Assembly (NCBI GenBank): GCA_973895155.1 | Contig: OZ316893.1 | Span: 16,646,645-16,710,644, forward strand | Source of the DNA: Marsupella aquatica | Taxonomy: Eukaryota; Plantae; Marchantiophyta | Direction of reading: 5' to 3' | Length of the DNA: 64,000 nt | Shown here: in pieces, positions 5,838 to 35,216 of the stretch | Layout: each line of letters begins with the position of its first letter | How positions within the stretch are numbered: position 1 is the stretch's first letter | Translations under genes and position numbers: made by a program | Notes under the pieces: generated by a model | What the model was told of the DNA's origin: nothing | What the model saw: the letters and a program-made list of their open reading frames with translations, nothing else | Database searches by the model: none

Positions 5838-8800
5838 TGTGGTGCGTCCCATGGCTCCCTAAACCCAAGAAACCCCCCAGCTCAAGCCGATTCCCGTAGG
5901 TTTCGTGCTTGGCGAGGCCGTTTCCGCGGCTTAGCGGCATGGGACGCTGCTAACCTTCTACTACTACTATTAACATTTTACACACATATACTGGACAGAT
6001 CCTTCATCGGGTCATGAGATACGTAGCCGGCCTAATATAGGCCTTCCCCTGTCTTCCCCTGTCTTCCCCTCCGTCTTGTTAGGTATGTTTGGATTCCGCC
6101 GCCGGAATGATCCCCAATAGGCTTGGTTAAGCCGCTAAGACCTCTCTCAGCTCGACACATCCAACTCTCACTCCCCTGCTTACTTTCCTTCCTTCTGTTG
6201 ATGTGGGCACTCTTCACACAAGTTAATGCGACACACAAATAGCAAAATGACTCATTCTGACTGAGTCATACCATGCACTTGCCATACAAACAGTACATCT
6301 CATACACAAGTTCTGCGAACTAAGCCGTGAGGCCAACTCTATTCAGCTCTTAGGCATGAGGAAACATGAATATACACAAGGGTCACTGTATGACTAACCG
6401 AGAGCTTCTCGTACTACTTGATCCCAGCCCGGCTGGTGCAAACTAAAAACTTGCTAAAGAAGAGGCCCTGAGCTCCCCGCTGCCCAGGTACTTATCCTGG
6501 TAGTGGATCCGCCATTCTTTGCATCGTAAGCCTAATCTACCTGACAGTAATCTACTTGCCCGAATCTACCTATGTACAGCAAGGCAGGAGCACAAGTGTT
6601 GCTCCTACCAGTGGGACCGCAATCCCACTAAGCTAAGTGTCAGGGCCGCTCCTGGTTCTGATCCTAATCCTAAACGTGGAGATCCGCGCCCGCCCTGCCC
6701 ACTCACGCCTCCTCCCTCCACGTCCGCCCTCCCTAAAAGGAACGGCGCCCTTGCACCGTCACGACACCGGTGGTGGATCCTCAATGGACGCCCCCAACAC
6801 TTCCTCCTCAACCATTGCCGTTGGCCCGCCTACTGACAGATTACCTGCCCTTGACCGAGTCAACTCTCCATCGGCCTGACTGGGTCCACCTTCGGCTTCA
6901 GCCTCGACACCGGCCTCGGCAATACCCACGGCTTCGGCTTCAGCCACTCCCTCGGCTTCGGCCTCCCCTTCCCCTAGGGTAGTTGGATCCTTAGCCGTGA
7001 CCCTGTCTGGGGTCGGTGCTGGGTCTACCTCCTTGATCACCACGGCCTGTGAAGTCGTATTACTCCTTGACCCTGAAGGTTTCCGCTTCTTCTTCGTTAG
7101 TGGCTCGGCAGCTGGTCCCTTCCCCTTCCCACTTACTTCCGGCACTGGTGCAGTTGACGCGGCTTGTCCTTCGGCAATTACCACCCCTGGTAACTGGTTT
7201 GTCCCAACGGGAGATGGACCTGCTGCAGCTAAGCATTTAAATACTGCGGCTTGTTTCTTCAGCCGCTCTGTTTGGTTGTCGGCCCGCCGCTGTAGGTTCT
7301 CCATCTTCCTCGTGATTTCCTCCAACTCCTCTTGGGTTTCATCCAGGTCCTTACGTGCCCCCTCCAGCTCGTTTTTGGCCTCCTCCTGCTCCCTGTGGGC
7401 TTCCTCCAATTCCTTCTTCAAGGTAGCCCTCTCCTCCTGGGTTGCTCTTAGCTCCTTGTCGAGCTCTGCAATGATGACAGACTCCATCTGGTTCATCTTG
7501 GCGTAAGTCTGTTCGAGTATCTCGTCCTTCTCCCTTAGGTCGGCCTTGAAGCTGGCCGTCAGGGACGCAAGCTCCTGCTGCAGCGCCATAATCCCTTGAT
7601 AGGATTTCCCTAACTCGACCTCCTGCTGCTCAAGGGCTCCGCGGATTTTCTCGAGCTCCCCTTTCAACGCCCATTCCTTTCTTTGGGTCTCCGCCATGGC
7701 CCGGCTGTTGGCTGTTATGTGGGCCTCCTCTGTATTCTTCAGCTCTTGCTTCCACTTCTCCCTCTCTTTGATCGTGTCGGCCAACTCTTCCTGCGTCTGA
7801 GTCAGTTTATCCTTGATATTTTGATTATCAGCCTGCGCGGTGTCCAACTGCCCCTGCATGATGTTCAGCTCATGTCGTTTAATCCGCAGTTCATCTTGGG
7901 CTTTCTTGGCCGCCCTTAGATCTTCAATCTCGGCTTCCATCCTCCTAAGCCGCCGAATGACCTCGTCCTTCTTGCTTCTCTCTAAAGCCACCGCTTCTTC
8001 TAATTGGTGCTTCTCCAACTGCTCCCTATGGAAAAAGGGTCCTACCTCCAACTCCTCTCCAAAGATGCCGAGCGCAAGTTCCCCACACATCTCACCATAC
8101 TCCATGGCTCTATTCTTAGCGTAGGTGGAGTAAGTAGAAGTGATCGGCATCGCCCATCGTGGCCTCTGCTCCCAAGCCGTCCTGCGGATCTCTTCAATCG
8201 TGGCTAGAGGTTTGCTTCCTTTTTCGGCTAGCCGCCTGATGTCCTCCGGCCAATCTCCTCCTGGTAAATCCTTTTCCTTAGCCAGGGCGGCCTCTTCCTC
8301 CTGCTTGATTCGCTCCTGAAATTCCTGCACCGTCTGTTTTATGCCGTCGAAGCTCGGGGGAGCAACATCTGGTGGGGAAGACTCAGGGCTACTCTGCTGG
8401 TTGGGGTCCCCTCGCACTACCCTTGGAAGTGTGGGGACAAACCGGCCACAGGTCCTTACTCCTGGAACGTGATGGTCCGACCCATAGCCGGAATTATCAT
8501 GGCTGCAGTCCTCCACTGCCTCCTCTACCTCTTGGACGTCCGGCTTCTCCCTCTCCTCTTCGTCGGTAGGAGCTTCAGGCAATTCTGCCTCAGATTCGGA
8601 GCTTGAGGTTCCCACGTACATTCGAACACCTGGATTCCGGCCTGATTCTCTCCTTGTCTCCAGCAAAGGGGTTTTCTCTTGTGAGCCGGTGTAGGCCTAC
8701 CTCTGTAGTAGTGTCCTGCATTGTTGCCGTTGCCGTTGTTGTTGCCGATGCCGATTTCTTTTCTTTCTCCAGTAGTTTCAACAGACTCTGCATGCCTGGT

Positions 8801-10464
8801 TGTTGCATCGGCAAGTCTTCCTTCCTGGGCCTAAACACCTGCTCGATCGTAGGACTAACAGGTGGTTGAGGCTTCTCAGCCAACGGCCTCGGCGTTGGAG
8901 CTTCCTCGGGTGCCCTTACCTGCAGGGGAAGTACCGGGGCAAAAGTCTGACCTCTGGCATACCGGCACAACAGCGGCATGTGATAGCCAAGCCGCGACAC
9001 TCTCCCCATGCCGATTACCTGCTGCTCCTCCTTTAAGATCTTCTTCAATTGGTTGAGGAGGTACCCGTTGTAGTCCCGGCTTGGGTCTGGCCTTTCTGCC
9101 AGATAGACCTGTGCCTTGCCGATCTCTGCCCTCGGCAAGTTACAATGCATGGTCACCCGCAAGAAGTCGATCATCTCTCCTATGTGCGGGTTGGTGCAGG
9201 TGTTCCGGAAGAAGCCATTCTTCGTTGATGGCCCGGGGAACGACCGGAACTCCTTGTCAGGCAAGGTCTTCCTGGTATCAACTTTGGTCTTATTGCCTAT
9301 CGGCAGGCCAAACACTTCGGCAATTACCTTGGGAGTAAGATAGAAATCCTTCCCATATATCCTCGTGCAATTGGTCTCGGGTTCCCATGACCCCACGAAT
9401 TCTAATAGGTCTGACTCCGATACCTCCGGCTTCAGCCATGGTAATCTTACAAAGGCCTCCAAGCCGGATCCGGCCATGAAGCCTTGGTACTTCTTGGTCT
9501 GCATGGCCGTAAAGCATGCATCCTCCTCCCGTGCAAAATGTAGTTGCACCTCCACCGGTAGGGTTGCCGCCCAGCCCTTCCAGGTGTCATCCCTGGTTGG
9601 AATGGCCTTGATGGGATCGACCTCCTCCTCTTCGGCTTCTCCCTGCCTCCTGCTCTGCTGCTCGGCTGGCCTCTTTGGTGCCGCCGACCTCGTTCTTTTT
9701 GCCGGGGTGGCTTCATCGTTGACGGCCCCCTTCCTCTTCATCTCTGCTGCCGTGGAGGTTTCTCCTAGCACCGTTGCCTGGGTCCACCTTTCCGTGCTAC
9801 CCTTTAATTCCCAGTGTATGTCGTTGCAGTTCTTGATGGCCTCTCGGATGCCGACGACGCTGTCTTTGCAAAACAGAAGATCGTCGAGTTGATTGGAAGT
9901 AGGCGTCCACAGGAACTCGTCCTTGATGAGTTCGCCTCCTAAGAAAGCCGTCTTCTGCAGCTCCCACAATTGAGCGAGCTCCTGCCGTTCTCGAGCTGCC
10001 CTTTCTGACTCCTCATCCTCGTAAGTCTTGATGTACTCAGTTGCCCGTTCGAACAGACATCCCCAGAAATGTGCCGCTTGATTGACGTTGCTCATACCCT
10101 CCTTAGGTCGATCGTCGGTATCTACTCTCTCCCCGAGTGCTTGCCTAAGCAACTAACAGTAGCCTCCCGTAGTCGTCTGCCTAGTTCGTGCTCGCAAATG
10201 AGCCACCATCTCCTGCAAGCGCTCCTTACCCCTCTCCTCTGCCGGTCCTTCTTCCCGTTGATCCTTCCTAGCCGCCGACGCTTAACGCGCCCTAACCCTA
10301 ATCGGGTTTTCACCCTTAGCCTTACCTCCGGCCTCGGCCCGGGTTCCATGGTTGCCCCTAATTGTTTATATTTTCCTTGTTTTGTCCCTATACTAAGGTG
10401 TTCCTAGGGTGCCTTCCTGCTTTACCCACTTAACCGGCCGAGTGATTCCTGTCTAGGTATCACA
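5838..10464 (-). mobile_element. Solo LTR of family A (4.6 kb, ORF-containing)
   Basis: TGTGGTGCG…TATCACA termini, TSD AGTTG (5833-5837 and 10465-10469). Near-identical to LTRs 30554-35228 and 41453-46103. Confidence 0.95.
6759..10349 (-). pseudogene. Frameshifted copy of the family A LTR-encoded protein
   Basis: ORFs 10122..10349, 8590..10152 and 6759..8666 are consecutive pieces of the intact 1215-aa ORF at 31466..35113, broken by small deletions. Confidence 0.9.
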
Positions 10465-10559
10465 AGTTGAAGCAAGGGCCTTTGCAAGGATTTCTCAACT
10501 AACTATGAAGAAACATGGTTCAGTGAGGAAATATGCAGACAAGTTACTTGATCTGGTGG

Positions 10560-11784
10560 AACATATCCGGTAACAGAACTGCAAGTCATCCAATCAGCAA
10601 GCAAGGCAAGTGGAAGAAGACTCAACCACCTGCCAAGATCCCCATCACAGGCCTTCGCCAATGCACTAATGATCTGAACATGACCTCGTTCAGATTTCCC
10701 ATTGCCTTCCGGATTGTAACTTGAGGTAAGCTTCAACTTGATTCGGTACTGGTTGAAAAACTCTTGAGCTTCCTTGGAGCTCAGCTCCCCCTATCAGCTC
10801 TCATCCTTGTAAAACACCCTTGTCTCGCAATGATATCTTCCAAAATAAACTGACAAACAACAGTAGTCGTATTGGTAACCAAAGCTCTCCCTTCAACGTA
10901 AGAAGACAAGTATCTCGCCCCATTGCTTTCCCTTGGCATGTACACCACATCAACTGCCCATTGAAAATGTAGTGCCATCGGGTAAGTCGAAACCAATCCA
11001 TCTCTATGTCGGATCCTCGAATAGAACTGGCAGACTTCACAAGTCTCCATGTAATCCCGAACGCTCAAGTACAAACCAGGCCACCAATAAAGGTTCCTGA
11101 TTCTATCATAAGTTGCTTGAACCCCTCTGTGTCCAGGAACTTCCACATCATGGCTCTCTTTGAGAATTCGGTCCTTCTCAGCCTTCATTCCCACAACCCT
11201 TTGAAGTAACAGTCCCGGTTCCTTCGATCTTTGCCACAGGTATCCCTCCTTCAACAGGAACTTGTAAGACCTCTTTTGAATTCTCACAAACTCCTTGTAA
11301 TCCCACTCTGGTTGCTTCTCCAGAGTACTGATATACCTTCCAACATCCAACAACTCCCCCGAATAGAGTTCCTCCTTAAACTCTAGCTTTCCGTCAGCTT
11401 CAGAACTGGCCGCCCTACTCACTCGAGCCTCGACCTCATTTCCGAACCTGGCTCTTGAGAGCATGTCAGCAACCGGGTTATCCTTCCCAGCAATATGGCT
11501 CAACTCAGGGTCAAACATCCGAATGAAAGCAATCCATCTAAGCATCGCTATATCCGGCGTATCGCAGTTTGCTATCATTTCCAGTAACGATTGACAATCG
11601 GTCTCAATCACCACTGGAGATCCAATCAGGTAATTCCTCTCTTGATGGAGTGTCACTTTGGCACCCCAAAGCTCCCGTTTCACTTGGGCATATCTCCTTT
11701 GTCTTTCCATAAAGATCTTTGCCCCAACTCTGATCGCATACCTTTTGCCTTTCTCATCGTCCTGTCCAATAGCCCATCCAGCCG
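10560..11784 (-). pseudogene. pol: Element Y RNase H C-terminal part and integrase (truncated)
   Basis: VIETDCQSL, HIAGKDNPVADMLSR, zinc finger H…GHRG…CEVCQ, core WAVDVV / ADRG / YNPEGNGKSER. Contains frameshifts. Confidence 0.85.
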
Positions 11785-12165
11785 TGTGATGCCTAGCCAG
11801 GAATCACTAGGCCAGTTAGGTGGGGAAAATGGAGGTGTACCCTATAAACACATTAGTATAGTAACAAAAACAAGGAAAATATAAACAATTAAGGGTGACT
11901 ATGGAACCCGGGCCGAGGCCGGAGGTAAGGACACCGGGGGAGAGAACACGATTAGGATTAGGGCGCGCTAAGCATCGGCGGATAGGGGTAACCAACGGGA
12001 GGAAAGACCAGAGGAGGAGAGGGGTAAGGACCGCTTGCGAGGAATGGTGGCTCATTTGCAAGCACAAACTGGGCAGACAACTACGGAAGGCCAACTACTA
12101 TCAGCTGCTTAGGCAAGCACTCGGGGCGGGAGCAGATACCAATGATCGAGTCAAGGAGGGTATGA

Positions 12166-12230
12166 CGGGCATCACCACCGAGACAGGAAATAGGAAAACA
12201 GAACTCCTGTTAACAGGAAAACAGGAACCT
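12166..12230 (+). repeat. Left TIR/subterminal ACAGGAAA repeats of the MULE
   Basis: cgggcatcaccaccgAGACAGGAAATAGGAAAACAG…ACAGGAAAACAGGAA. Confidence 0.8.
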
Positions 12231-12768
12231 GTACCATGAATGTTTTGAAGTTTTGAGCCCACATTTTAGCGAAAGGTAACACTTGATCGGGTTCCTTACA
12301 ACAACTAAATGCAGTCACTTCTCCACCAAATATACATAAACCATCGAGTGGGTCCAACCATACACTGGTTGCTGATACGAAACACACTTGAAATGTTACT
12401 TATCTTAAAAATATCATCGGAATCGGAACTGTATTCTATAATATCGCTAGGCGCTAACAAAAAACAAACCAAGATTTCTAGCCCATTTAAATAAACTTAT
12501 TGCAAAAATACCTACTAGTGTAAGAGTTTAGATGAGAAGAATTCCATTCCCAGAATGTTAAGAAACGGAAATTTTGGTTGCAAACACAAGTACTTTAAAG
12601 AATCCATCCGGCCCATGAAATGAAAGAGATTCACTCAGAACGGGACAAACTTATGCTAGCGCCGGGCGCTAGCCATATATATTAACCAAATATGATCGTT
12701 GAAAAGAAATGAAACGTTGCAATGCGACAAATGAGGTTGGAGCCGTTCAACGTTACTAAATCTCTAGT

Positions 12769-15700
12769 CTATAAGTTTAGAGAATTCTGCCTAGCTAGAA
12801 TGAGCCTCACCTCACCTACAGTCAAAATTGGCTGACTAGCCAAAGTTGAATCCACGACATCTAGTTTGAGGACGTTGGTATAAACCCAATATCGATGCTT
12901 GCAAGGCATGAAAGGCCGTCCATGAGAATGGCGACGATAGAAGTCCTCACAAGAACAGCAGGGGAAAATACAAATCTGCACCCAGTAAGTGTTTGCCATA
13001 CGAAGTTTCTCTTGGGTCTGGATCTGAAATTGTTTGCCCCAAGAGTTTCCGATTGAAACATCAAACTGTTGAATAAGTGTCATCAGCTCGTTGTTTGCAG
13101 ATTCAATTCTTTTGTTGTGTCCTTGTGAAAGATTTGAACGTGGGACTGTATTTTTACCATTCCTACTCCGAATGCGGATATTTGGCTCCAGGAGATTGAT
13201 TTTCTCAGGGAAAACATTCACATTGATTCGCAAGTCAAATGGAGATGGAGGAGCCTGACGTCCGGCCTCTGGATTGATCGCAATCCCTTGCTGAGATAGG
13301 AATTGGACCTCAGCTTCCGAAAGATTCGTGCCCTTTAAAACGGGCAGGGTATGAGGAAACGGGGAAAGATTCACCACATTACGACGGGGCCGACTCTTAT
13401 AGCATGCATTATTGGGATAGAACCAAATCATCTCAGGATGTGGTTCTCCCCTGAACATGCGGTGTCCTTTGACAACAATGCCAACTACACCATCCGTTGA
13501 CGGATAACCAACCTTTTTCAGATGATTTCGACAGTCATCTCGTTCCGATTTACCACCAAGAGATCCATTACATTGAGGCCCTGCACCATGTTTTGTCACT
13601 CTTTGTAGGTGCCAAGCACCTGGTCGCACGTCAGTCTCCAACACAGATGAGTCATGGACAACCCTTTGGAGGTTCGGAGGTGCACTTTGCGGTGCTACAG
13701 AAGACCTTGTCACCCTCCTCCACGGCGGAGTACTCCAATGACAGCCTTCTTTGATTTTGCTTTCCGAGAGATCCACAATGCCAATGTTATCGTGAACAGG
13801 TCCCTCTGCATTCGGGGAGAATTCGGTCTTGTTTAAGTTTTTCCTCTTCATACCTCGAGTATTTGGTGATGTTACAAGAATAGTGTCATGCCGATGGGAG
13901 TCTTGTGCCGAGATGTTCCCAGAGGCCTGACCTTTCCTCTTCATAGACTTTGTTGTAACATCCCCATTGAGTGGACCACTCCTTTCTAGGTCAAATTCAG
14001 CCGCACCGAAAAGAAGCATATTGGAAGCATCTTGGAAAAGTTTTGAAGAACCTGCCTGGTCCGCCGAACGGAATGCCAATTCCCAAATTGTAGGTCCGGT
14101 TCCTCGGTGAAGACCTCTCTTATACGCCGTATATGCTGCAACTTGTGAGACACCCCTGTTTTGGTCCATCTCACATTCTTCGAATAGGCCAGCCTTTTCC
14201 TTAGTTTGCCAAGCCTTCATTATGGAATGCGCCACCTCTGAAGTAGTACAGTTAGGAATCATAGCGCTTTCCTCCACGCTTTTGTTCTGCATCCACCATA
14301 GGAGCAGAGTTTAGGAAATATGACTTAGCCACATGTACATAAAATCAATGACAGCGCCTGGCGCTAGCAACATTCAAACTATATTTTTGCTAAATTTAAG
14401 AAACAAGTGGTCCATTAATACTAGCGCCGGGCGCTAGTATCAAAAACAAGATAATGATGAACAAAACCTACGAGACCACACTAACTGAAAATAATGGTAG
14501 CGCCAAGCGCTAGTATGAGTTTGAGTGGTTACTGGATGTTGAAACTCACCAAACGAATGAAATTTCCCCATTGACGCCATCGGACCACCCACCACGCCAA
14601 CCAACCTTGGAGCATTCGAAGCTTCCCTGGAACACAATTCCCAGATCTCCACCATACATCGATATCCCTTGAAATTCTGTACGCTCCAAGAAATGTGGAC
14701 GCGTTCCTTAAAGAGTCCTACATCTTTCGATGCTCATCTCGTTTTTCTTCCAATACACCTTCAATCGAGTGACGATGAAACGATTGATAGAAGTGAAACG
14801 CATCCGATCGCTCCTTTTCTGGGTTAGGATGTCCTCCGAAAAATACATTCCGAACAGCATTCCATCCAGCTTGGGCATTGTCAGCCATGAATCCATGGAT
14901 CACAACATTATCCAACCCATTTTCATGGCAAACCTCAATCATCAATTTCCAGGCTTTCTCTAGAGACTCTGAATCTTCTGCTTTCAACTCACATGTGAAA
15001 ATTGTGCAAAGAGCACGATAATTGTGATCATAAACATGTGCGCTAAAAGTTATCCAATCTTTTGTCATCCTCCTCATCACATCAAAACTGACCCATGCCC
15101 CTTCCAATGGACCTCCAGGCTGCATTTGGCGCAACAAATCAACTCCAGATCCGTGCCCTTTTACAGTCATTTTGAAAATATGTGGCCTATCCTCTTTATA
15201 GCCTTGACTTGGGAGCATGTAACATTGTAGAAAGGGAAAGATTATGCATTTATGCATTTCAACAAGAAACTCCAACTCACCTTTGCCTTTTTGGTCTTGC
15301 CGAACGCTTCGAAAAAGAGATGCAAACTTTTGAGGGGTCGAAACTACCATTAACGACTCCCAAATTTCTCTTTCCTCCAATTCACCAATGTCATTGTTGG
15401 ACACACAAAGAGCCTTCCTTAAAGATCCAATTATAGTGTTCTTCAGACCCGATGGTGTGGCACACGGCGTAGCTTCATGTTGTTTCTTTATGAAGTTGTG
15501 AGCAATCTTTTCAGCACCACGAGAAAAAACTTTTCGACTGGGATGAGCATGAGTTCCGACATGCACAGCAAGACGGGACATATGCTTACAAGTATCCGCG
15601 TCTAGAAGTAGTTGAGGGTACATATAAAAAAGCATTGCAGGACATGCTTCAGTACAAAAGGGTAATCGTTGGCAATAGTGACAAACTACGCCACCCTCGT

Positions 15701-16568
15701 CAATCATCTTTCCTACGGTATGTGGCCCCGCGAGTTTGGGTGTGCCATTCCAAGCTTTACAATTTCTTCATTTCTTCCGCAAAAGATAATCACACTTCTG
15801 ATTCTGACATTCTAGTGCTCCTGTACACGTCACTTTACCAAATTCCCAGAACTTTTTCGGTTGTACATTCGTAGAGGTTGGAAATATTCGTGTCCAGAAG
15901 TAGCAGTCTTTCGGCCGATCCATGTCACAGAGTCTTGAACCTTTTGAAAGAAGACCTTCTGCGGGAGGCAATTCAAATACAACGTTTCCATTGTATTTGC
16001 TTGGCAGGCAATTCACCTGCTCATGCCTGAAATCACATGTTCGGATGAATCGCGATAGTTCACTATGGCCAGTTGATTTGAGAATAGCATCCATCGCACT
16101 TCGACGATAGACAATACCTCCCGCAACACCCCCCACAACGTGTGTCTCCGCAACACCCCTCGCAACGTGTGTCTCGGAAGGAAACTGACCTTCCATCTTG
16201 ACCGAAGTTCCCGGATTGGGCGATTTTTGCGAATGAACGGCAACATCCTCCTCATCACTATCGGAAAGGTGAATGACGGGAACCAGATGAATTTCATTCG
16301 TAACGGAATTATCTCGAAGATTGATATAGTATCTCTTCCCAGCGTTCAGTTGCCAAAATCTGACTCCATCGTCGATATCAAACAATGCGTCACCAGCCTC
16401 GTCTCCAAAAGCATCAACAGGTTTGATGGAAAGAATGTCATTGATGCCAATGTCAAATCTTCCACAAAGATAGTTCTCACTAACCTGTTTGTACGTATCG
16501 GAAGAACCTAAAGGAATGCGTACAATCTCTCCAGTTCCAGAACGCAGAAGCACAACTGAATTAGACAT
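12769..16568 (-). pseudogene. MULE-type DDE transposase with Cys/His (GCM/WRKY-like) region and C-terminal SWIM finger; 2 exons, 2 premature stops
   Basis: Exon 16568-14550 reads through TGA at 15768 and TAG at 14718 in frame. GT-AG intron 14549-14287, then exon 14286-12769. Motifs: CxxC…C…HVGTHAHP, VSFDV, FMADNAQAGWNAVRNVF, SDAFHF, CTTSEVAHS, SWIM CSCEDF…PCKHRYWV. Confidence 0.85.
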
Positions 16569-17465
16569 TGAGGAACAATAATCCCGAATTGACAAACAGA
16601 GAAAATGAGAGAATAGGAGAACATAACCCGACTTAAGTTAAGTGAATTCGTAACAAACTCCAGAAGATTATCGTTTGTGAACGACAAAACGGGTACTAGT
16701 CGTAAAATGTAGAAACATAAATGTCATTTGTCGTTTTGCCAACGTCACTACGTACTGGTAACATCAATAATATAGTTTGAGAAACACGATCAGATATTTA
16801 CTAGCGCCCGGCGCTACCATAAATATGTCACGGAATTAAAACCTAAAACCAAACTTCATATGCTAGCGCCAGGCGCTATCATTAATCCACTTCCAATTAA
16901 TGGAGAAAAACTCTATTAATTTTATTGGAATAACAGAAATGTCAAAATACATTGAGTTTGTTTTATACAATTGTTGTTTGTAGGAAATATACACGTATAA
17001 AATATAGTTAGCGTCGGGCGCTGACATAATTTCATGGCTAACATCAGTGTTAATGATGTTATTCTGGTGGTTTTTGAATGCTAGCGCCTGGCGCTAGTAT
17101 CGAAAGGAATGACTTGTATTATCCCAACGGTTATATCTAACGGTAAAGTGCATGAACATACTCATTGTTTTGCACTTTTTGCAGTTGACTTCCTTAACAA
17201 TAGCCTACGGATCATCGCTCCTGCCTTACCCCACTTAAAAAGAGGTGTTACATATACTCATTCTAAACAGTATCGGCCACTTGTCCTTGTCATGATTGGT
17301 GAGTGAGATCCTTTTCTTCCGCATCGATCTACCTCTCATGATGTCAACCGCCCAAGTTTTAAAGGTTTCCTGGTTGTTCTTTTTGTACGGTAATCTATTC
17401 AGAGTGTGAGAATAGACACTGGCTCTGTGTCGTACAAGCACCTTCGCAAACTTTGGGGCTCCACG

Positions 17466-20400
17466 ATGCAACCTTCAAGCGCTCCAAGCTCTCCAAGAGG
17501 GTATACCACGGTTCCGGAGGGAGATCAGGGTCATTGCGAGAGTACACAATCTTCATTCTCTGGGGCATTCTATTCGCGTCGTGTTACAAGATCGAGCGGA
17601 GCGATTCCTTCATCGAACACAACACTCCCGAGCCAGAAGCCAAGAAGGGGCAGAATGGAGACTAATGGCATGACCGATTACGCTTTGGGAGAGGGCAACG
17701 AGGTAGGACTTGGAATGGATGAAGTCATCTCCAAACACATTATGTCGTTTGGGAAAGATTTCCGGGGTAATGAGAAGGAACCTCCACGGATTCCGCTTTG
17801 TCGCCTGGTCCACATGGAGGTTGTTCGGACATTACAGAAGGAGAGTGCGTCAATTGAGAAATTGAAAGACTCATTCCGAAGTAGTGGATACAATCCCAGG
17901 ATAGGAATGCGGTTTTTTGTACAACCGACCGATTCGGATGGTGTGGAGCAAATCTGCACTGAAGAGATCAGGGAGAGTTGGGATCCAATTTGGGTTGCTG
18001 AAAACGAGAAGTTTGAGCTGGAGTGCGAGGCAGATCCTGCCTTTATGATCTTGAAAGACAAAATGTTCTCAGTGTTCGACGGGAATCATCGACTTTACTC
18101 GTGGACGATGGTCACTAAGGAAAATCCTGACAACGTCAAGTATCATCCCAGAGTTCTCTGCACAATTTTCAAGGGTGACAAAGCTTCACAAATTCAGATT
18201 GAGGCGGCTATGCACACTGTGAACCAGTACGTTTTTTGCCCTAGCTTGTAATTAACGATTTCCGCAATACTTGTTGATTACACAAATATAGTGTTTATGG
18301 AGTGTTTATAAAATAATACAGTGTTTATAGGCTAATTGAGTGTTTAAGTTAAGCTAGCGCCCGACGCTAATAATTGAAAACCTGACCTATTGCAGGTTAG
18401 GGCAGGCCGTTGTTGAACCGTCATGGATCCTTGACGTAGACAGAATCCGGAGGATTCTTTCTCACGATCTAGAGCACTACAAGTCTATCATTGACAGCGC
18501 CAATTATGCAAAGTTTGAGTATATCAAACAGAAGACTCGAAAACATTCTTGGTACACAAGAAAAATGCCTCTGGAAGCTCTAGTCTATATTTTATGTGAA
18601 AACAAAATCAAAGCTTACACTAACCAGTTCAAGATGGACATGGCACTGGCAGCAAGTCAAGGCAATCCTTGGTCGGCTGATGACATCACAAAGCGGCAAT
18701 CGCTCATGTTGAAAGAATCTACTAAAGATTGGTCCACAAAAACGTCCAAAATCACTCCTCTTCTTAGTCCTGAGTTTGAAGATTTTCTAGGTACCTGTGC
18801 AGAGATGTATGTTTTGACAGAGAAAAACAAGCGAGAGAAAAAACCAGATTCGGTTGTTTGCACTATGGACCGTGCCAGACTCTTCACTGCAGTTTCGGCG
18901 CTTGATCCAAAATTGAGGTGTACATTGCTCGTTGCTCACTGTACTCCAGAGTTGAGAAAACAATTCTTCCACCCTTCGAGTGTGAACGATGATCCAGTGA
19001 AGCAGTGGTGCCACACATGGCAAACATGGAATACCGTCGAGGGAATTGCAATTGGGATGCTACACTCAGCAATTTCCGTAGCGATTGAAATGCTACCGGT
19101 TGATAGGCTTGCCCAGTCAGGGTGTGACTCGGTAGAAAATCTGATTGAAGTAATTTCAAGTGAATTCCGAAGGTATGGGGATCTTGTGAAGGCAAAGTTC
19201 TTCAACACCATGTGGCCATCAAAATACCCTGATAAAGAGGTATATACCGAGAAAAATCAGAAGAGGGCCAAGAGGTATTTGTATCGTTTCTACATTTGGA
19301 TGGAAATTCATTCCCCGGATGCTCTTTGGTTGTATCCAGCCGCATTTCACAAGTGGATTACTGTAAAGGAGGGAGATCTTGTTTGTGACTTATACTCGAT
19401 GTATCCTGCCAAGGGTAAACTACCCCCAAGGGAAATGTCCGATTGGGAAAGAATTCACTGCCCATGGTACCTTGACACAGACAAGTGGGATTCACCCTTT
19501 GATGAAGTGGAGAAGGATTCGTTTCTGAAACTTGCAAAGTCGTAGATCCTTCCCAACATTGTTTCTGAGATGAAGCAAGGTCTCCTTAGCGACGTCGATA
19601 AATCTTCTACAGAGTTACAGACAATCTGTGAGACAGTAGTTGTCCATGTAGATTGGAGCCGCAAGCCACGAGGGAAAGTTAAAATAGACACTACAGTGCC
19701 AAGTGCCTCCACGCGATCCGGAAAGAAACGTAAGTTTTCAATCTTTTATCAAATGTTTGCTAGCGCCCGGCGCTGCCATTCTTGTGATTCAATCTTCATC
19801 AGTGTTTGCTTGAAGGCCCTAATCCCACATTCTTTGCAATATGTCCATAGGTCAAAAGAAGTTAGATGCAGATGGCACAGATGATACGAAGGTTACTCCA
19901 GAAGCTTCAGAAGCAAATACTGGCGCTTTGCCAGATCCACTTACACCAGTTAATTCTGGGAAATTGATTGTCCCAGTCGATGCGACGAGTACAAAAAAGA
20001 AAAGCAGAAGGACTCGAGATGCTGGACAATCAGAACGGGATTCTCAAGCTGCCACTGGGCTCCAACGTGATGTTGGGGATTTTAAAGCCAAGTCGTCTCG
20101 TCATTGTTTCGTTGAGACCAGTGTCAGTGAACTTGTGGACAGTGTGTTTAATAAGGAGGAGAAGCCGGAATGGGTAAATGATGCCGAAAAGTGGGGGAAA
20201 GACCTGATCAAATCTGGATGCCGGCTGAAAGGAGTGGTGAGGGGTGGGAAGCAAAGACCTTTTGGTGTTGACGCTAGTTTTTTTTACTTGCCAACTGGAC
20301 TAAAACCGACTTTGCTTGACAGAAAGGTCCCTAAATGGAACGTCCCCGACTGTACCCTAGCCCGATCCTTTTTCCGGGCAATGGATCCTTTTTTGTCGGA

Positions 20401-20949
20401 TGACGGAATTATTGCGATACTCCATACGGGGGAGTATGATCAAATTTCGCAGGTCATCTCCGCTTATCAAGAGTCCAAGAAATTCCAGTGTCTATGTACA
20501 CATAATGTCGTCATGGGGTTCCCAATGTACAAAGCGAAGTCTGATTTACAGGTAATTTTATTGATCCTTTTGCTAGCGCCCGACGCTATTCATATTATCT
20601 ATTACTCATTTTTTCGTTTTTTAAAATATTCTTGGTGTTGACATAAAACCCTAAACTTCTCGTCCTCAGGTCAGACTGGAATCTTTGCCGGCGTTTCAAA
20701 CTCAGAAGGAAAGTAGCTAGGCGATATATTAAAACTCCCGAGAAACCATTTGTACTACCTTCCTATGCTGAGAATATTGCTAGACGAGCTGATAGTGTGC
20801 GGACCCTCCATTGGGAGCATAAAGGTTTGAGATTAAGGAGAGGGTCTGATAGAAAATTTATTCGTAGTCGATATGTTGATGATATGGCCGAGAACGAATT
20901 TTTAGACATGGAGGCAGAATCCACCGACAGGTCCGAGTCAAGTGAATAA
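17466..20949 (+). pseudogene. Spliced accessory gene: ParB/Srx-like N-terminal domain, unknown helical region and degenerate amino-methyltransferase-like segment
   Basis: In-frame GT-AG introns 18227-18395 and 19730-19850 join ORFs 17406, 18565, 19570 and 19841. A third intron is at 20552-~20669, and the last exon appears frameshifted. One in-frame TAG at 19543. Motifs IPLCRL…VRTL…IEKLKDSF…FSVFDGNHRLYSW and VDASFFYLPTG…PKWN…FLSDDGIIAILH. Confidence 0.7.
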
Positions 20950-21993
20950 GAATTCTCAGATTGATTTCCCTCGGACGGGTATTTTGGGATTTATATACAC
21001 TGAAGTTATACTAGCGCCGGGCGCTACTGTTATGTAACCTAGAAACATTGTTTATTCAAATGTATTCGATACATTGGATACTTTTTTGGTGTATCTTTAT
21101 TCTATTATGTTCTCTATATTCGAATGTTTTTATGGTAGCGCCTGGTGCTACCATAATTTAATGTCCATGATCATATACCCGCATATTTTTCAATTTGGTT
21201 TTGTCCATTTTCAGGGTAGGTTTACTTCCTAAGACTGGACATTCCGATTGGTCGGAAACAATTGACCTGCAACTCCGTTTATTTTGTGTCTATTTCTCAA
21301 TTGAATTATGCTAGCGCCTGGCGCTAGCAAAACATATTTCGGAAACATTGTCCGTTAAGTGTTTTCCACATGTCAGAGACAACTGTTTTGTTTGTTCCTT
21401 CTGTTATTAACGTAAACATTTTAATACTCTAATATTAGCATCGGGCGCTACTATAACTGTATGACGGTCAAGGCTATCTTACAATGATTCTCCCGTACGC
21501 TCTGGATGACGTCATTGGAAGTTTCAAGGTAATCTTTTGTCCCGTTCTAAGTTCGTTCGGCCTGTCGCGACTCGCATGTGAGTTGATACCGGATTTTTCT
21601 CATACAAACGGTCACTTCACGTCACAACGGGACTTTGCATGCCAGAAACATTTTGGGATTCCAATAATGGTTTTGGTCGACTGTTTCTGAATGGAGACGA
21701 TGGTAAACGTCGCAACTATCATGTGAGATGGGAGTGATCGTTCCATGTTGAACGGGTAGTTTGGGGACTTTGAGGGTGCAACGTCCAACCCCTCCCTCAT
21801 TTCGATGGGCGTATCCAGGTCGAACGGGTTTGCTTATAATACTTGGGAGATTAAATCCCGACTGCCTAGTTTCGCTACTGCTTTAGTGGTTTCTGTTCCC
21901 ACTTTTGATAATCTTGGAGCTCTTTCGCTGACCGGGGTCGTATTGACAACTATATCTTTGAATCTGCCATCCGCTGCCTAGAGGTGTCTTACC

Positions 21994-22470
21994 ATGAATA
22001 ACCCGAGGAGAATCTCCATGGCCTCTTTTCAGAGACACACAACAATCATTTCAGAGGAGGGCTCGGTTCCAGAAACTGAGCAACCTGAATGGTCGGAGAC
22101 AACTGCTTTCCGCAACCGTTTTAGTCTCCCCCAAGACGAAGCCATTAGTCCTGGTGACAATCTGATCCCATGGCTGAGGGATTCTCCGCCTAGGATATTT
22201 GCAGAGCGGTTTACAATTCACTGGCCACCTCCTCCTTACAGTCCAACTCGGGAGGATGAGATGAGGAAACAGGAAGAACTTGGTCGTGTTGATTTCCAGA
22301 ACACGACCATTCCTGGCATGTTTCCCCGAACTGGTGATGAGCGAGTTTCGTCGATGGCGTTCGTGAGGAATTGTGAGCTCAGTTTTGTTCCAGATAGAGC
22401 CCGATCTAATGCTGGAGTGAACGATGAATGTGGCTCATCGACCAATGAGCGGACTAGCGCCCGGCGCTAG
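21994..22470 (+). CDS. Possible third MULE gene or exon (158 aa, Pro/Glu-rich), unknown function
   Basis: ATG-started ORF inside the MULE. Its stop codon is supplied by a palindrome copy. No recognisable motif. Confidence 0.3.
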   Translation: MNNPRRISMASFQRHTTIISEEGSVPETEQPEWSETTAFRNRFSLPQDEAISPGDNLIPWLRDSPPRIFAERFTIHWPPPPYSPTREDEMRKQEELGRVDFQNTTIPGMFPRTGDERVSSMAFVRNCELSFVPDRARSNAGVNDECGSSTNERTSARR

Positions 22471-23214
22471 CGTTGGTCGATAAGACTATGGTGCCCATTG
22501 CTCTCAAGTTTTTCCAAATGTGATGAAGACTTCGTCGGGACTCGACCGGAATTTAGAAATCTTGTCGTTAGATGTAGCCATTTTGGTTATCGATTGTGTG
22601 GAGTTCGGTGAAGTGCCTAGCACTAGTTTACTGTTCGGCCATTTTAAGCGAGAGGCGTCGGATGCGCATAGCTTTTTGAAACTTTCATACCTTCTGTTTA
22701 CGGTGTGGTTATGCGGATCACTTTTATCTTTTGTAAGCGCCTGGCGCTACCATCTTACTTAAAAAAATTGTATCGCAAGACTTTGTGGCTTTGGGGTGGC
22801 ATTCAATTATGCGAATTGGTTGGAGTCTGTTCTTTTGGATGTATAACCCTAAATGTCGGTCCGATGGTCCCTGTGGTTTTGTCGTATTTATCACGTCGGC
22901 CTCCGTCTAATTGAGCAATATAACTAGCGCCCGGCGCTAGTATCTGCACCGGTCCGACGGATGTGTCAGAGTTTCTTGTTTAGAGCTCCATTATGTACAA
23001 TTACAATGGCAGCGCCTAGTGCATTAATGTGCTTTTCAGTATAACCTAGGTTCAAATGTACCGTTCCCCTCGGCTTAGTATTCTAGCCCCTGTTGCTATT
23101 CTACATCATTTTTTTTTGGACTTGACTATAGTCTTCTAAAAGCCCCATTTTAGGGGTCAAGTTCTTGCTTAACAACAGACAAGTTTCCGGTATTTTTCTT
23201 TTAAGTTTGGTGTG

Positions 23215-23293
23215 TTCGGTTTCCTATTTCTTGTCATCGGTTCCTGTTTTGGGTTTCCTGTTTTCCTGTTTCCTGTCTTATGTAAATACCCCG
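23215..23293 (-). repeat. Right TIR/subterminal ACAGGAAA repeats of the MULE
   Basis: The reverse complement reads cggggtatttacataAGACAGGAAACAGGAAAACAGGAAACC…. Confidence 0.8.
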
Positions 23294-23295
23294 GT

Positions 23296-26200
23296 ATGAG
23301 CAATGTCAATCAAGCGGCACATTTTTGGGGATGCCTGTTCGAACGGGCAACTGAGTACATTAAGACTTACGAGGACAAAGAATCAGAGAGAGCAGCTCGA
23401 GAACGGTAGGAGCTCGCTCAACTGTGGGAGCTGCAAAAGTCTGCCTTCTTAGGAGGAGAACTCATCAAGGCCGAGTTCTTGTGGACTCCTACTGCCAATC
23501 AGCTCGATGACCTTCTGTTTTGTGAAGACAGAATCGTCGGCATTCGGGAAGCCATCAACCGCTGCAACGACGCGCATTGGGAGTTGAAGGGTAGCACGGA
23601 GGGGTGGACAAAGGCAACTGTGCTAGGAGAAACATCCACGGCAACCGAGATGAAGAGGAAAGGAAACATCAACGAAGAGGCCACCCCGGCAAAAAGAACG
23701 AGGTTGGCGGCACCAAGGAAGCCAGCAGAGCAGCAGAACAGGAGGCAAGGAGAAGCCGAAGAGGAGGAGGTCGATCCCATCAATGCCATTCCAACAAAGG
23801 ATGACACCTGGAAAGGCTGGGCGGCGACCCTACCAGAGGAAGTGCAATTACATTTTGCACGGGAGGAGGATGCATGCTTTACGGCCATGCAGACCAAGAA
23901 GTACCAGGGCTTCATGGCCGGATCCGGCTTGGAAGCCTTCGTAAGATTACCATGGCTAAAGCCAGAGGTGCTGGACTCAGACTTATTAGAATTCGTGGGA
24001 TCATGGGAACCCGAGACCAATTCCACGAGGGTGTATGGGAAGGATTTCTATCTCACTCCTCAAGTGATTGCCAAGGTGTTTGGCTTGCCGATGGGTAATA
24101 AGACCAAGGTTGATACCAGGAAGACCTTACCTGACAAGGAGTTCCGGTCGTTTCCAGGACCATCAACCAAGAATGCCTTCTTCCGGAACACCTGCACCAA
24201 CCCGCACATCGGAGAGATGATCGATTTCTTGTGGGTGACCATGCATTGTAACTTGCCGAGGGCAGAGATCGGCAAGGCTCAGGTCTACCTGGCAGAAAGG
24301 CCAGACCCAAGCCGGGATTACAACGGGTACCTCCTCAACCAACTGAAGAAGATCTTGAAGGAGGAACAATAGGTGATCGGCGTGGGAAGCGTGTCCCGGC
24401 TTGGCTATCACATGTCATTGTTGTGCCGGTATGCCAGAAGTCAAATCTTTGCCCCAGTACTTCCCCTATCGGCAAGGGCACCGGAGGAGGTTCCGGAGCA
24501 GAGGCCGGCAACAGAAGAGCCCAACCAGCCTGCCAATCCTACGATCGAGCAGGTGTTTTGGCAAAGGAAAGATGACTTGCCGATGCAGCAATCAGGCATG
24601 CAGAATCTGCTGAAATTGCTGGAGAAGGAGAGAATAGCACCAGCAACGCAACGGCAACGGTACCGGTACAGGACACTGCCCCAGAGGCCGGCCTAAGCCG
24701 ACTCAGGAGGGAAAACCCCTTTACCGGAGCCAACGAGAGAAGGAGGCCGGAACACAAGTCGGGAGTTCAAATGTATGTGGGAGCCTCAAGCCCCGAATCG
24801 GAGGCAGAGCAGCCTAAGGCTCCTTCCCGTGGAAAGTAGAGGGAGAGGACAGCCTGGAAACCAGAGGAGGAACAAGAGCCCGTGATCTGTGAGGCCGTTT
24901 TCACGGCAGGACCAGGGGAACAGAGGGGGAAGCCGGAAGTCCAAGAAGTGGAGGAGGAGGTGGAGGACTACAGCAATGATAACTCCGGCTATGGGTCGGA
25001 TCATCATGTTCCAGGAGTAAGGACCTGTGGCCGATTTATCCCTACGCTTCCAAGAGTAGTTCGAGGGGACCCCACCCAGCAGAGTAGCCCCGAGTCTCCC
25101 CCACCAGAGGTTGCTCCCCCGAGCTTTGACGGCATAAAGTAGACGGCACAAGAATTTCAGGAGCGACTTAGGGAGGAAGAGAAAGCAGCCCTGGCTAGGG
25201 AGAAAGATTTACCAGGAGGAGATTGGCCAGAGGACATCAGGCGGCTTGCCGAAAAAAGAAGCAACCCTCTTGCCACCGTAGAAGAAATCCGCAAGGCGGC
25301 TTGGGAACAGAGGCCGAGGTTGTTGATGCCGATGACTTCTACTTACTCCACCTATGCTAAAGATAGAGCCATGGAGTACGGGGAGATGTGTGGGGACCTG
25401 GCGCTCAGCATCTTTGGGGAGGAGTTGGAGCAGGGGCCTTTTCTCCAGAGGGAGATGTTGGAGAAGCACCGATTAGAAGAAGCGGTGGCTTTGGAGAGAA
25501 GCAAGAAGGACGAGGTCATCCGGTGGCTTAGGGAGCTGGAAACCGAGGTGGAAGACCTGCAGGCGGCTAAGAAAGCCCAAGATGAGCTACGGATTAAGCG
25601 GCATGAGCTAAACATCATGCAAGGACAATTGGATGCCGCTCAGTCTGGCAATCAGATTATCAAGGATAAACTGACTCGGACCCAAGGAGAGTTGGCCAGC
25701 GCGGTCAAGGACAGGGAAAAGTGGAAGCAGGAGCTGAGGGACGCAGAGGAGGCCCACATAACCGCCAACAACCGGGCCATGGCGGAGACTAAGAGAAAGG
25801 AGAGGGCGTTGAAAGGAGAGCTCGAGGATATCCGCGGAGCCCTTGAGCAGAAGGAGGCCGAGTTAGGGAAATCCTATCAAGGGATTATTACGCTGCAGCA
25901 GGAGCTTGCATCCCTGACGGCCAGCTTCAAGGCCGACTTGCGTGAGAAGGACGACCAGCTTGACCAGACTTATGCCAAGATGAATAAGATGGAGTCTGAG
26001 GTTGTAGCGGAGCTCGACAAGGAGTTAAGAGCAATCCAAGAGGAGAGGGCTACCTTAAAATTGGAATTGGAAGAAGCCAGAAAGGAGCTGCAGGAGGGAC
26101 GGAAGGACCTGGAGGAAGCCCAGGAGGAGTTGGAGGAAACCACCAGGAAGATGGAGAACTTACAGCGGCGGGCCGACAACCAAACGGAGCGGCTGAAGAA

Positions 26201-26744
26201 ACAGGCCGCAGTATTTAAGTGCTTAGCTTCATCTGGTCCAACTCCAATTCTGGGAACTCCGTTACCAGGAGGGGTACTGGCCGAAAGACAAGCCGAGACA
26301 CACGCCCCGGTGCCGGAGGTAGGTAGCAAGGGGAAGGGACCAGCTACCGAAATAGGGAAGAAGAAGAAGCGAAAACCTTCTGGGTCTGGGAGTTATACGG
26401 CTTACCAAGCCGTTGTGACCCAGGAAGTCAACCCGGCACCAACCTCCGGCATGATTACGGCAGTAGATCCACCTGTTGAAGAAGGTGGGGATGGCAAGGC
26501 CGAGGCCGGGACAACTATTGATGAAGCCGAGGTACCGGATCCTCCACTAGAACATGTCGGGGAGGCTGAAGCCATATCGAAGGCCGTGACCGATGCTGGA
26601 GCCGAAGCCGAGGGTGGACCCAGTCAAGCCGATGAAGAGTTGACTCGGTCCGGGGCAGGTAATCTATCAGAGGACGGACCGACGGCAGTGGCTGCGGGGG
26701 AAGCATTGGGGGCGTCCATTGAGGATCCACCACCGGTGTCATGA
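23296..26744 (+). pseudogene. Degenerate family A LTR-encoded protein (N-terminal piece at 11895-12165)
   Basis: ORFs 23479..24372, 24373..24696, 24882..25142 and 25320..26744 align to the 1215-aa protein. Several CAG>TAG stops and a frameshift. Confidence 0.9.
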
Positions 26745-27646: not shown

Positions 27647-28813
27647 AGCCGCGAATGGGCTCGCATCAACGGTAACTACCAGCGGTCTCCCACACTCATA
27701 ATCCGCAGGTCAAAGCACCGGAGGGCTCATGAGAGCACTCTTCAACCTCGACATTGCCTCACTGTGCTCAGGTAACCATCGCCACTTAACTCATTTTCTT
27801 TGCAACTCATAGAGCGGATCCGCAAGGTGCGAGAAATGAGGAATCTAGATCTTGTAAAACACACAAGCACCCAGAAACCTTGAAACCTCCGGCACCGACT
27901 CGCAATCCTTCATCTTACTTATAGCCATCACCTTATCCATGTTTGGCTTCCGGCCATAAGCTCCGCATATCTGACCAACAACCTTCACCTCTCTCATTCC
28001 AAACTCGGACTTCTCCCCCGAAAGAGTAAGTCCAACCTCAATGAGCTTCCCAAGAATGGCCTTGACATCAATAATGTGTTCCCAAACAAACTTCCGGATC
28101 CCATCACTCCTCAAGGTCTCATCCTTAGCCTCATCCAAGCATCCCTTAATCGGAACATCATCAATAAACGGTCTCGCCTTTTCTGGAATGAACGGTTCCA
28201 GAACTTTACTCATCACATTCTGCATATGCGCCACTGAGTTAGTCGCCCCTTGCGGAAGAGTTGACATCCGCAAGAGGCCCAAAGGAGTCCTCATAGTTGT
28301 TATGTCCCAACTTTCTTGCGATAATTGGAACTGATCATAGCCCAAAAACAAATCACCCATTGAGTAGATTGCCCTTCCGGCAAACTCCTTGGCAAATTCA
28401 TCCACGAGTGGTCCTACTCCCATGTTCCTGATTGTCACTTTGTTCGGCGGCTGCATGTCTTGAATGAACCTCAAACTCCCATTCTTTTTCCGAACCGTAA
28501 ACCATCTGTTCGAATATGGAGCATCCGATCTCTCAAGAATCCCAGCACTTAGGTTTTCCTTCAATAGTTCCGCCAGCTTTGGAGCCAAAGCCTGCAGAAC
28601 AGCAATCGGCTTCAGATCCCATGGAACATGCGGGACAGTGAAGATGACCATCGGTGTCACCTTACTTGGATCCACACAACCAATCTCATCAATCAAAAAT
28701 GAGAAAGCTTTGCCATGCTCCATAATCATCCTTCGAAATGCTTCCTGTTCCAACTTAGTAAGCAGCCCATCAGAACCAATTCTGAGCCTTGCTAGACTCT
28801 CCTGGGTAAACAC
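27647..28813 (-). pseudogene. pol: Element Y reverse transcriptase and start of RNase H
   Basis: APYSNRWFTVRKKNGSLRFIQD, DLFLGYDQF, LPQGATNSVA, PFIDDVPIKG, followed by VVTVDASP. Confidence 0.9.
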
Positions 28814-29295
28814 ATGCCCTATTCAACCCTCGGGTCTCAATCTCGGTTTCAGTCTAGCTCGTTCCATCACCTCCATCGCATTATCCGGTAATGGTATTGC
28901 TGCGGGTCTCACTTTCTTATCAACGGTCTTGTATTTTGTGTTTGAATGGACAATCTCAGAGACGAGCGAGTACTGATACTCGCTCAACTCTATCTCCATC
29001 TTCCCACTTTCCAAGTTAGAAACCACACTCTTGAGTGGCTCGTCACATCCGGTTTCCACCAAAACCCCTTCCAGACTCTCATCATCGTCAAGCTCGTTAG
29101 ACTCGGCCAAAGTCTGACTTGCTTCTTTCACATATCTCTTGTGCCGCCCGGTCATCTCATTCCCACCAACATAGGTAACTTTGCTAGTTCAAGTGCAACC
29201 TACAAACAAACTGGAAAAACACTCGTTATCCTGTGGAGCCAAAACACAAGCACTCCGCTGGTCCACGAACTTCAGCGGAGCGCAAAAACGTTTCC

Positions 29296-35113: not shown

Positions 35114-35216
35114 GGTTGCCCCTAATTGTTTATATTTTCCTTGTTTTGTCCCTATACTAAGGTGTTCCTAGGGTGCCTTCCTGCTTTACCCACTTAACCG
35201 GCCGAGTGATTCCTGT

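Follow-up and report, generated by a model that had tools for sequence, protein, structure and literature searches.

Likely selected palindromes in the introns and spacers of a Mutator-like liverwort transposon: candidate sites for a ParB-like accessory protein

The DNA analysed here (the window) is a stretch of 64,000 nucleotides from the liverwort Marsupella aquatica (GenBank assembly GCA_973895155.1, contig OZ316893.1, positions 16,646,645 to 16,710,644 of the forward strand). It contains a DNA transposon, apparently Mutator-like, with two divergent genes, one for the transposase and one for an accessory protein with a putative ParB/DndB-like domain, and a palindrome, TAGCGCCNGGCGCTA (TAGCGCC-N-GGCGCTA), recurs throughout the non-coding DNA of the element. 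Judged from sequence comparison, the palindromes are likely to be selected protein-binding sites. The features of the element, in window coordinates, are as follows.

12160-12165, plus strand: left target-site duplication GTATGA, repeated at 23294-23299; 7 bp (GGTATGA) possible
12166-23293, no strand: multi-copy DNA transposon, 11,128 bp, ends CGGG...CCCG, inserted in a Gypsy long terminal repeat (LTR) element
12442-12671: two palindromes downstream of the transposase gene, near the left end (12442, 12657)
12769-14286, minus strand: transposase exon 2, with predicted catalytic Glu in CTTSEVAHS and C-terminal CxC..CKH
14287-14549, minus strand: transposase intron, 263 nt, GT..AG, with three palindromes (14352, 14422, 14498)
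14550-16568, minus strand: transposase exon 1, encoding an RNase H-like DDE core; five homologues without interruption are 50-55% identical
16802-17096: part of the divergent promoter gap with four palindromes (16802, 16864, 17009, 17082)
17466-18226, plus strand: accessory exon 1, with a putative nucleotide-binding domain, ParB/DndB-like, that contains DGNHR; predicted start codon
18227-18395, plus strand: accessory intron 1, one palindrome (18355)
18396-19729, plus strand: accessory exon 2, large all-helical domain with no fold match; in-frame TAG at 19543
19730-19850, plus strand: accessory intron 2, one palindrome (19761)
19851-20551, plus strand: accessory exon 3, resembling a beta-class N6/N4 DNA methyltransferase, front half only
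20552-20669, plus strand: accessory intron 3, with one palindrome (20574) and an uncertain acceptor
20670-20949, plus strand: accessory exon 4; either its frame is broken or the acceptor is misplaced
21012-22939: seven palindromes in the 3' part (21012, 21136, 21312, 21436, 22455, 22735, 22925)
23294-23299, plus strand: right target-site duplication GTATGA

With up to two mismatches allowed, the palindrome occurs 19 times in the window, always within 12442-22939; the mean over 100 dinucleotide shuffles of the window was 0.09, and none of the shuffles reached 19. The roughly 53 kb of the window outside the transposon, including the flanking host and Gypsy DNA, contain no match, and none of the 19 overlaps the modelled coding sequence (6,610 bases). 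A preliminary description of this DNA had counted three copies in the transposase intron, one in each of the three accessory introns, four in the promoter gap and none in the exons, and our motif scan reproduces those counts; the remaining nine comprise two near the left end and seven in the 3' part, in addition to which there is a weaker copy near 23010. The outer 270 bases of the element lack the palindrome, which is spread across the interior. In a symmetrised profile the site is wider, about 21 bases, and every one of the 38 half-sites has a purine two positions out from the core; mismatches affect 13 of the 266 core bases over the 19 copies, and eight of these are C>T or G>A.

The flanks of the copies are unrelated to one another (26 of 50 positions identical in the best pair, mean 16.9) and none of the 11 tandem-repeat rows in the window overlaps a palindrome, so that tandem or segmental duplication was rejected as their source, in agreement with the preliminary description. 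When the two flanks of each copy were compared with each other, none of eight positions showed more complementarity than in shuffled pairs. Symmetry without pairing of the flanks is what would be expected of a site read by a protein rather than of a hairpin, and selection for hairpins was rejected for the window's 19 copies.

That the sites are likely selected is suggested by comparison with a related family. A metagenome scan for further loci returned one, here called L001, from 169 pattern matches; the corresponding searches found none in viral contigs (0 of 22, and 0 for a paired-motif pattern) or, in two scans with 73 and 122 pattern matches, in prokaryote genomes. L001 is a 2-kb contig encoding a related transposase (66% identity in the best segment), and its orthologous intron, at 1079-1395, has three palindromes 32, 116 and 206 bases from the donor, compared with 37, 113 and 183 in the window. 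The half-site TAGCGC is unchanged, and at all three sites the spacer is 2 bases long against the window's 3. The four intron pieces lying between the sites are barely alignable with those of the window (summed p=0.054 against shuffles; p=0.006, uncorrected, for the 3' piece alone), against 65% identity over the last 150 bases of the exon. Retention of the sites at nearly identical places in an intron that has otherwise diverged so far argues that they are likely selected, the comparison across families being with this one relative. Within the window's own family, two of the 40 variant places listed (of 3,386) lie inside sites, namely 17014 and 21440, and at both the other copies are nearer the consensus than the window copy.

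In L001 the middle palindrome of the intron centres a near-perfect hairpin (L001:1168-1236) with arms of about 30 bases and -38 kcal/mol as DNA, which is possibly a trace of how new sites arise or are perfected. Such a structure would also suit the idea that the palindromes are by-products, born of hairpins through template switching or inserted as tiny mobile units and surviving where they interrupt no reading frame, or else that they function as hairpins in RNA or DNA; the arms of the L001 sites match perfectly, and the motif carries stop codons. We regard this as quite improbable, since the window's 19 copies have no extra arm complementarity, the 53 kb outside the element have no palindromes, no Rfam family was matched in 12100-23400, and number and places have been conserved in an L001 intron that otherwise diverged. 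The four sites in the divergent promoter gap might alternatively recruit a transcription or chromatin factor of the host. To this we give very little chance: the difference in spacer between the families, 3 bases against 2, is better suited to a reader evolving with the element, and there are no sites in flanking host or Gypsy DNA.

The limits of the element are supported by public contigs (four runs, from two organisms). Contigs that stop at 12165 resume with sequence located after 23299, and a paralogous Gypsy copy near 10092 has a single copy of GTATGA. The inverted ends are imperfect, with the register best at 23293, where 25 of 40 positions are identical as against at most 17 at four neighbouring positions; terminal inverted repeats that are long, or degenerate as in VANDAL-type elements, are a trait of the Mutator superfamily, and the element matches it. 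Subterminal A(C/T)AGGAA repeats are present at both ends in inverted register. Between 2,655 and 7,981 contigs per run mapped to 11800-23600, covering all 30 bins with graded identity, and the element therefore belongs to a multi-copy family. The window copy itself is dead, with in-frame stops in the transposase gene (TGA at 15768-15770, TAG at 14718-14720) and TAG at 19543 in the accessory gene.

Around the element lie decayed pieces of Gypsy-type LTR retrotransposons and repeated sets of open reading frames (ORFs), at 6759-11803, 23293-26744, 27845-28822, 31466-35167 and 42365-46042; contig depth on the LTR-like flanks is about 100-fold that on the transposon, and a Pfam search of 18 window ORFs gave names only for the Gypsy flanks. 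In the 3' part of the transposon, 21982-22470 is an open frame of 162 codons, the stop codon of which is supplied by the palindrome at 22455. It had no Pfam match, nor did any of the fetched proteins match it convincingly; it may be a third gene. The organisms named for homologues of the element's proteins are liverworts, Riccia sorocarpa and Calypogeia fissa. Our targeted literature search found no description of this element.

All four predicted introns of the transposase and accessory genes are bounded by GT..AG, and seven of their eight splice sites appear to be backed by homologous proteins, mostly from liverworts where the organism is named. At the transposase donor, 14549, similarity ends at a Val (GTN) right after QWG..R-x in all 12 unspliced homologous ORFs that continue past this point; 22 homologues were compared, of which nine others end or diverge earlier and one, the annotated Calypogeia fissa protein P0025, spans the intron junction. 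In three of the four runs there are contigs in which 14441-14543 is replaced by six letters and the third intron palindrome is gone, the joint, as placed, reaching to a few bases from the donor. For accessory intron 1, spliced Riccia models cross the junction MHTVN-Q-LGQAVVEPSW without a gap, and unspliced ORFs begin there; one contig in each of two runs skips nearly all of this intron (18228-18393), with a short side of 25 letters and unknown letters between, and probably represents a diverged intron or an intron-less copy. At intron 2 the similarity of unspliced homologous ORFs drops at about the predicted site. The donor of intron 3 is supported by homologues that end nine residues past the same Pro; its acceptor is uncertain, the frame of exon 4 that matches a homologue (p=0.002) being out of phase with a cut at 20669. 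The introns predicted in the preliminary description are thus supported by homology, apart from that one acceptor. Its claim that every intron contains a palindrome is borne out for these four, but would be broken by a candidate intron of 104 nt at 17299-17402 (GTGAGT..TTCAG), upstream of the accessory start codon and without a palindrome, if that intron is real.

The transposase gave no Pfam match: the MULE domain was found in none of 26 alignment members, and there was no SWIM match. Its C-terminal CxC..CKH may be a SWIM-like finger, and it has DxxH where Mutator has CxxH. In the model of homologue P0002, which is 55% identical, a helical insertion accompanies an RNase H core; in a Foldseek search its top four rows were the ISCth4 transposase (PDB 6xgw; E from 1.1e-4 to 1e-3), followed by Hermes at 3e-3, a small margin. 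On the model, then, the transposase is Mutator/IS256-like by fold. The N-terminus (residues ~18-97 of P0002, ~16300-16560 in the window) is modelled confidently as a small beta-grasp, ubiquitin-like domain (Foldseek rows 15, 16, 18 and 35). Target-site duplications of MULE transposons are usually 8-11 bp long, mostly 9 bp. At this single insertion the duplication is 6 bp by the register of the inverted ends and at most 7 bp by exact repeat, shorter than that standard, for which reason we class the element as Mutator-like and not as a member of MULE; the name MULE given to it in the preliminary description agrees with the fold but not with the duplication.

A transposase of this kind could itself bind the palindromes, whether for self-activation, for autoregulation or for pairing of the ends, in which case the accessory gene would be unrelated cargo. 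The AtMu1 transposase is reported to bind its own motifs and to activate its copies without an accessory gene (10.64898/2026.08.24.746577); here palindromes lie near both ends (12442 and 12657; 22735 and 22925), and the sole relative with DNA, L001, was found through its transposase. The ends, however, have the separate inverted A(C/T)AGGAA repeat in the usual position for transposase sites, while the palindrome is missing from the outer 270 bases and extends through the whole interior, and the AtMu1 report places binding at the terminal inverted repeats (10.64898/2026.08.24.746577). We consider it rather improbable that the transposase is the reader.

The accessory protein is the more attractive candidate. 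For exon 1 an atlas comparison gave DUF3723 (0.95) and ParB_N (0.92), with recognition just below the atlas mark; the ParB-like PHROG scored E=0.058, and TIGR03187, a DGQHR family, E=0.055. Pfam gave no ParB match for the protein and no family on any of the accessory exons. The DGNHR motif fits Box II, GxxR, described as the phosphate-binding motif of the ParB-CTPase fold (10.1101/2025.10.10.680097), and DGNH[RQ] or DGNQQ is present in 15 of 16 pattern matches among the fetched proteins. These three leads are weak but concordant, and suggest tentatively that exon 1 encodes a member of the ParB/DndB superfamily. The nearest atlas clusters to 17736-18227, within this exon, are fungal DUF3723 proteins; DUF3723 is described as a conserved cargo gene of Starship transposons (10.1101/2021.12.13.472469), which hints that it too may be a ParB-like accessory factor.

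Exon 2, for which there are 103 homologues, is predicted to form a helical block: in a model of a homologue the per-residue confidence (pLDDT) is mostly 85-98 over residues ~190-580, as against ~30-70 for the ParB part. A fold search with the accessory model found no match at E <=0.001 in PDB or among viral models, and VIA-align gave a best Z of 7.7, on the methyltransferase-like part, with ParB absent from its 50 rows. No helix-turn-helix was identified by the fold searches in the helical domain of about 400 residues, a homodimer prediction for that domain, made without the alignment, gave no answer (score 0.00), and profile searches of solved structures gave nothing useful. In Riccia sorocarpa the gene model P0090 (R1sor_026403) joins transposase-like residues to accessory exon 2. 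The two genes are thus likely to be adjacent in Riccia too, where they would be on the same strand, in contrast to the divergent layout in the window.

The last part of the protein resembles half a methyltransferase. In exon 3 a Tyr replaces the Asp of motif IV (YLPT), as it does in the close homologue P0130, and the S-adenosylmethionine (SAM)-binding half, with motif I, was not found in the window; a phage tblastn search gave only weak rows, to methyltransferase motif I. In Riccia homologues an N6_N4_Mtase domain forms the end of the protein (E ~1e-5), and three of these homologues (P0132, P0134 and P0135) have a degenerate motif IV (LDLPT/LDMPS) together with a motif-I-like DFAGGWG, so by sequence the domain is complete in the Riccia relatives and broken in the window copy. 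On these grounds the N6/N4 methyltransferase of the element might once have acted on the palindromes, with the ParB-like domain as its guide, and have left on them a private mark of N6-methyladenine (6mA) or N4-methylcytosine (4mC), with catalysis since lost in the window family. We think this unlikely. Besides the motifs kept in Riccia, it is favoured by the beta-class methyltransferase CcrM, the top Foldseek row for the accessory model (E=0.83). On the other hand, 15-21 bp is long for a methyltransferase site, and the window copy and P0130 have lost the motif-IV Asp, with the SAM-binding half absent from the window, yet the array is well kept. A phage ParB-like protein has been described that activates a DNA-modifying enzyme (PMC13229309), and 4mC is reported to be made in the liverwort Marchantia (10.1101/2021.02.12.428880); both would lend such a mark some precedent.

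Taken together, these observations make it moderately probable that the palindromes are selected, family-specific sites for a dimeric protein encoded by the element, most likely the ParB-like accessory protein: the motif is confined to an element whose accessory gene encodes a candidate ParB-like reader. A dimer would read the two TAGCGC half-sites, loading at many points over the 11 kb, where within the genes the introns would offer the only stop-free room, and would spread or bridge from these sites, so marking the element as self. By analogy with VANC for VANDAL and VirB on its plasmid, the purpose would most plausibly be to keep the element transcribed against host silencing; the broken methyltransferase of the window copy would contribute at most to binding.

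Several points weigh against this interpretation. On either strand the consensus invariably reads as a stop codon in one frame and in most cases in a second frame too, and the absence of palindromes from the exons is in part mechanical, because the motif carries these stops; the probability of finding none in the exons under uniform placement, P=2e-8, is overstated accordingly. With placement allowed anywhere in non-coding DNA, occupation of all four introns has P=0.038 and at least six intron sites P=0.039 (2.6 expected), the 3' 2.3 kb being treated as non-coding; the enrichment in introns is therefore weak (P ~0.04), and weaker still if those 2.3 kb include unrecognised exons. The largest gap between palindromes, 2,304 bases, is not clearly smaller than chance would give (P=0.073), and one subfamily, with the 14441-14543 deletion, does without the third site of the transposase intron. 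Every ParB lead falls below its significance threshold, and the ParB part of the model has the low pLDDT noted above. The 2-kb contig of L001 includes no accessory gene, so a joint change of spacer and protein has no pair there to rest on. Finally, a transposase alone can be a sequence-specific activator, as is described for AtMu1 (10.64898/2026.08.24.746577). Of the preliminary description's proposal that selection keeps binding sites at intervals with short introns as their carriers, selection of the sites is supported by the L001 intron, but neither selected spacing nor a carrier role is: the introns hold sites, which are likely selected, and nothing indicates that the introns are kept in order to space them.

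A more specific version of the ParB-like reading, in which a fusion of ParB and methyltransferase loads at private palindromes in all introns and spacers and slides along the 11-kb element, which it thereby keeps active, while relatives with an intact enzyme write 6mA or 4mC and the palindrome spacer changes together with the protein among families, is possible but doubtful. For VANC too, the effect of which is reported to spread past its binding sites (PMC10398659), the question arises how a single transposon protein recognises and reactivates an element of several kilobases; loading of a ParB-like clamp at evenly available palindromes would, if true, be a concrete and testable mechanism. Liverworts offer genetics in Marchantia and naturally occurring pairs of families whose sites differ by one spacer base. 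Given the methyltransferase fusion of the Riccia relatives, land plants might also possess a 6mA/4mC mark made by a transposon. The value of the case is limited in that the window copy is dead and that both reader and role are deduced from sequence.

The closest parallel is VANDAL/VANC. VANC21 is reported to bind motifs in introns and in the intergenic and terminal non-coding DNA of VANDAL21 (PMC5735166), with an effect that spreads past its binding sites over the element (PMC10398659). There too, a Mutator-like element with an accessory gene has a family-specific short motif in introns, intergenic and terminal non-coding DNA, and the motif varies among related families, as it does here in the spacer of L001. 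The VANC motifs, however, are 8-9 bases long and in tandem repeats, whereas here there is a palindrome of 15-21 bp, in single copies with unrelated flanks; the accessory protein gave no VANC-related match, no direct comparison with VANC sequences having been made, and gave ParB-like and methyltransferase leads instead; and anti-silencing has been demonstrated for VANC and would here be assigned by analogy. In view of the missing tandem repeats and of that lack of a VANC-related match, we do not place the element under VANDAL/VANC. Compared with Mutator/IS256 transposases such as ISCth4 (PDB 6xgw), the transposase shares the RNase H core followed by a helical insertion, but differs in the lack of a Pfam MULE or SWIM match and in the 6-7-bp target duplication.

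The proposed mode of action has its counterparts in bacteria. VirB of Shigella is described as an anti-silencer of the ParB family that spreads from its site (10.64898/2025.12.19.695565), and KorB of plasmid RK2 and VirB are, according to the accounts cited, ParB dimers of mobile elements that load at sites, spread, and regulate transcription at a distance (PMC11790492, 10.64898/2025.12.19.695565), as would be proposed for the accessory protein. The KorB operator TTTTAGCGGCTAAAA, taken from an oligonucleotide in PMC11790492, shares the TAGC..GCTA core with our palindrome, which may be chance. KorB and VirB differ in being bacterial and in having a helix-turn-helix, a motif not identified in the ~400 helical residues of the window's protein. 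For bacteria and phages, ParB joined to an N6N4-methyltransferase is named as one of the common fusions (10.1101/2025.10.10.680097), and a helix-turn-helix of the ParB type fused to Dam is reported from chlorophytes and chytrids (PMC4738411); the order of domains, ParB-like and then amino-methyltransferase, is the same here, but in a spliced gene of a eukaryotic cut-and-paste transposon, with a large helical insert and a truncated methyltransferase. What may be new is a Mutator-like case from a land plant that combines a methyltransferase fusion with a family-specific change of spacer.

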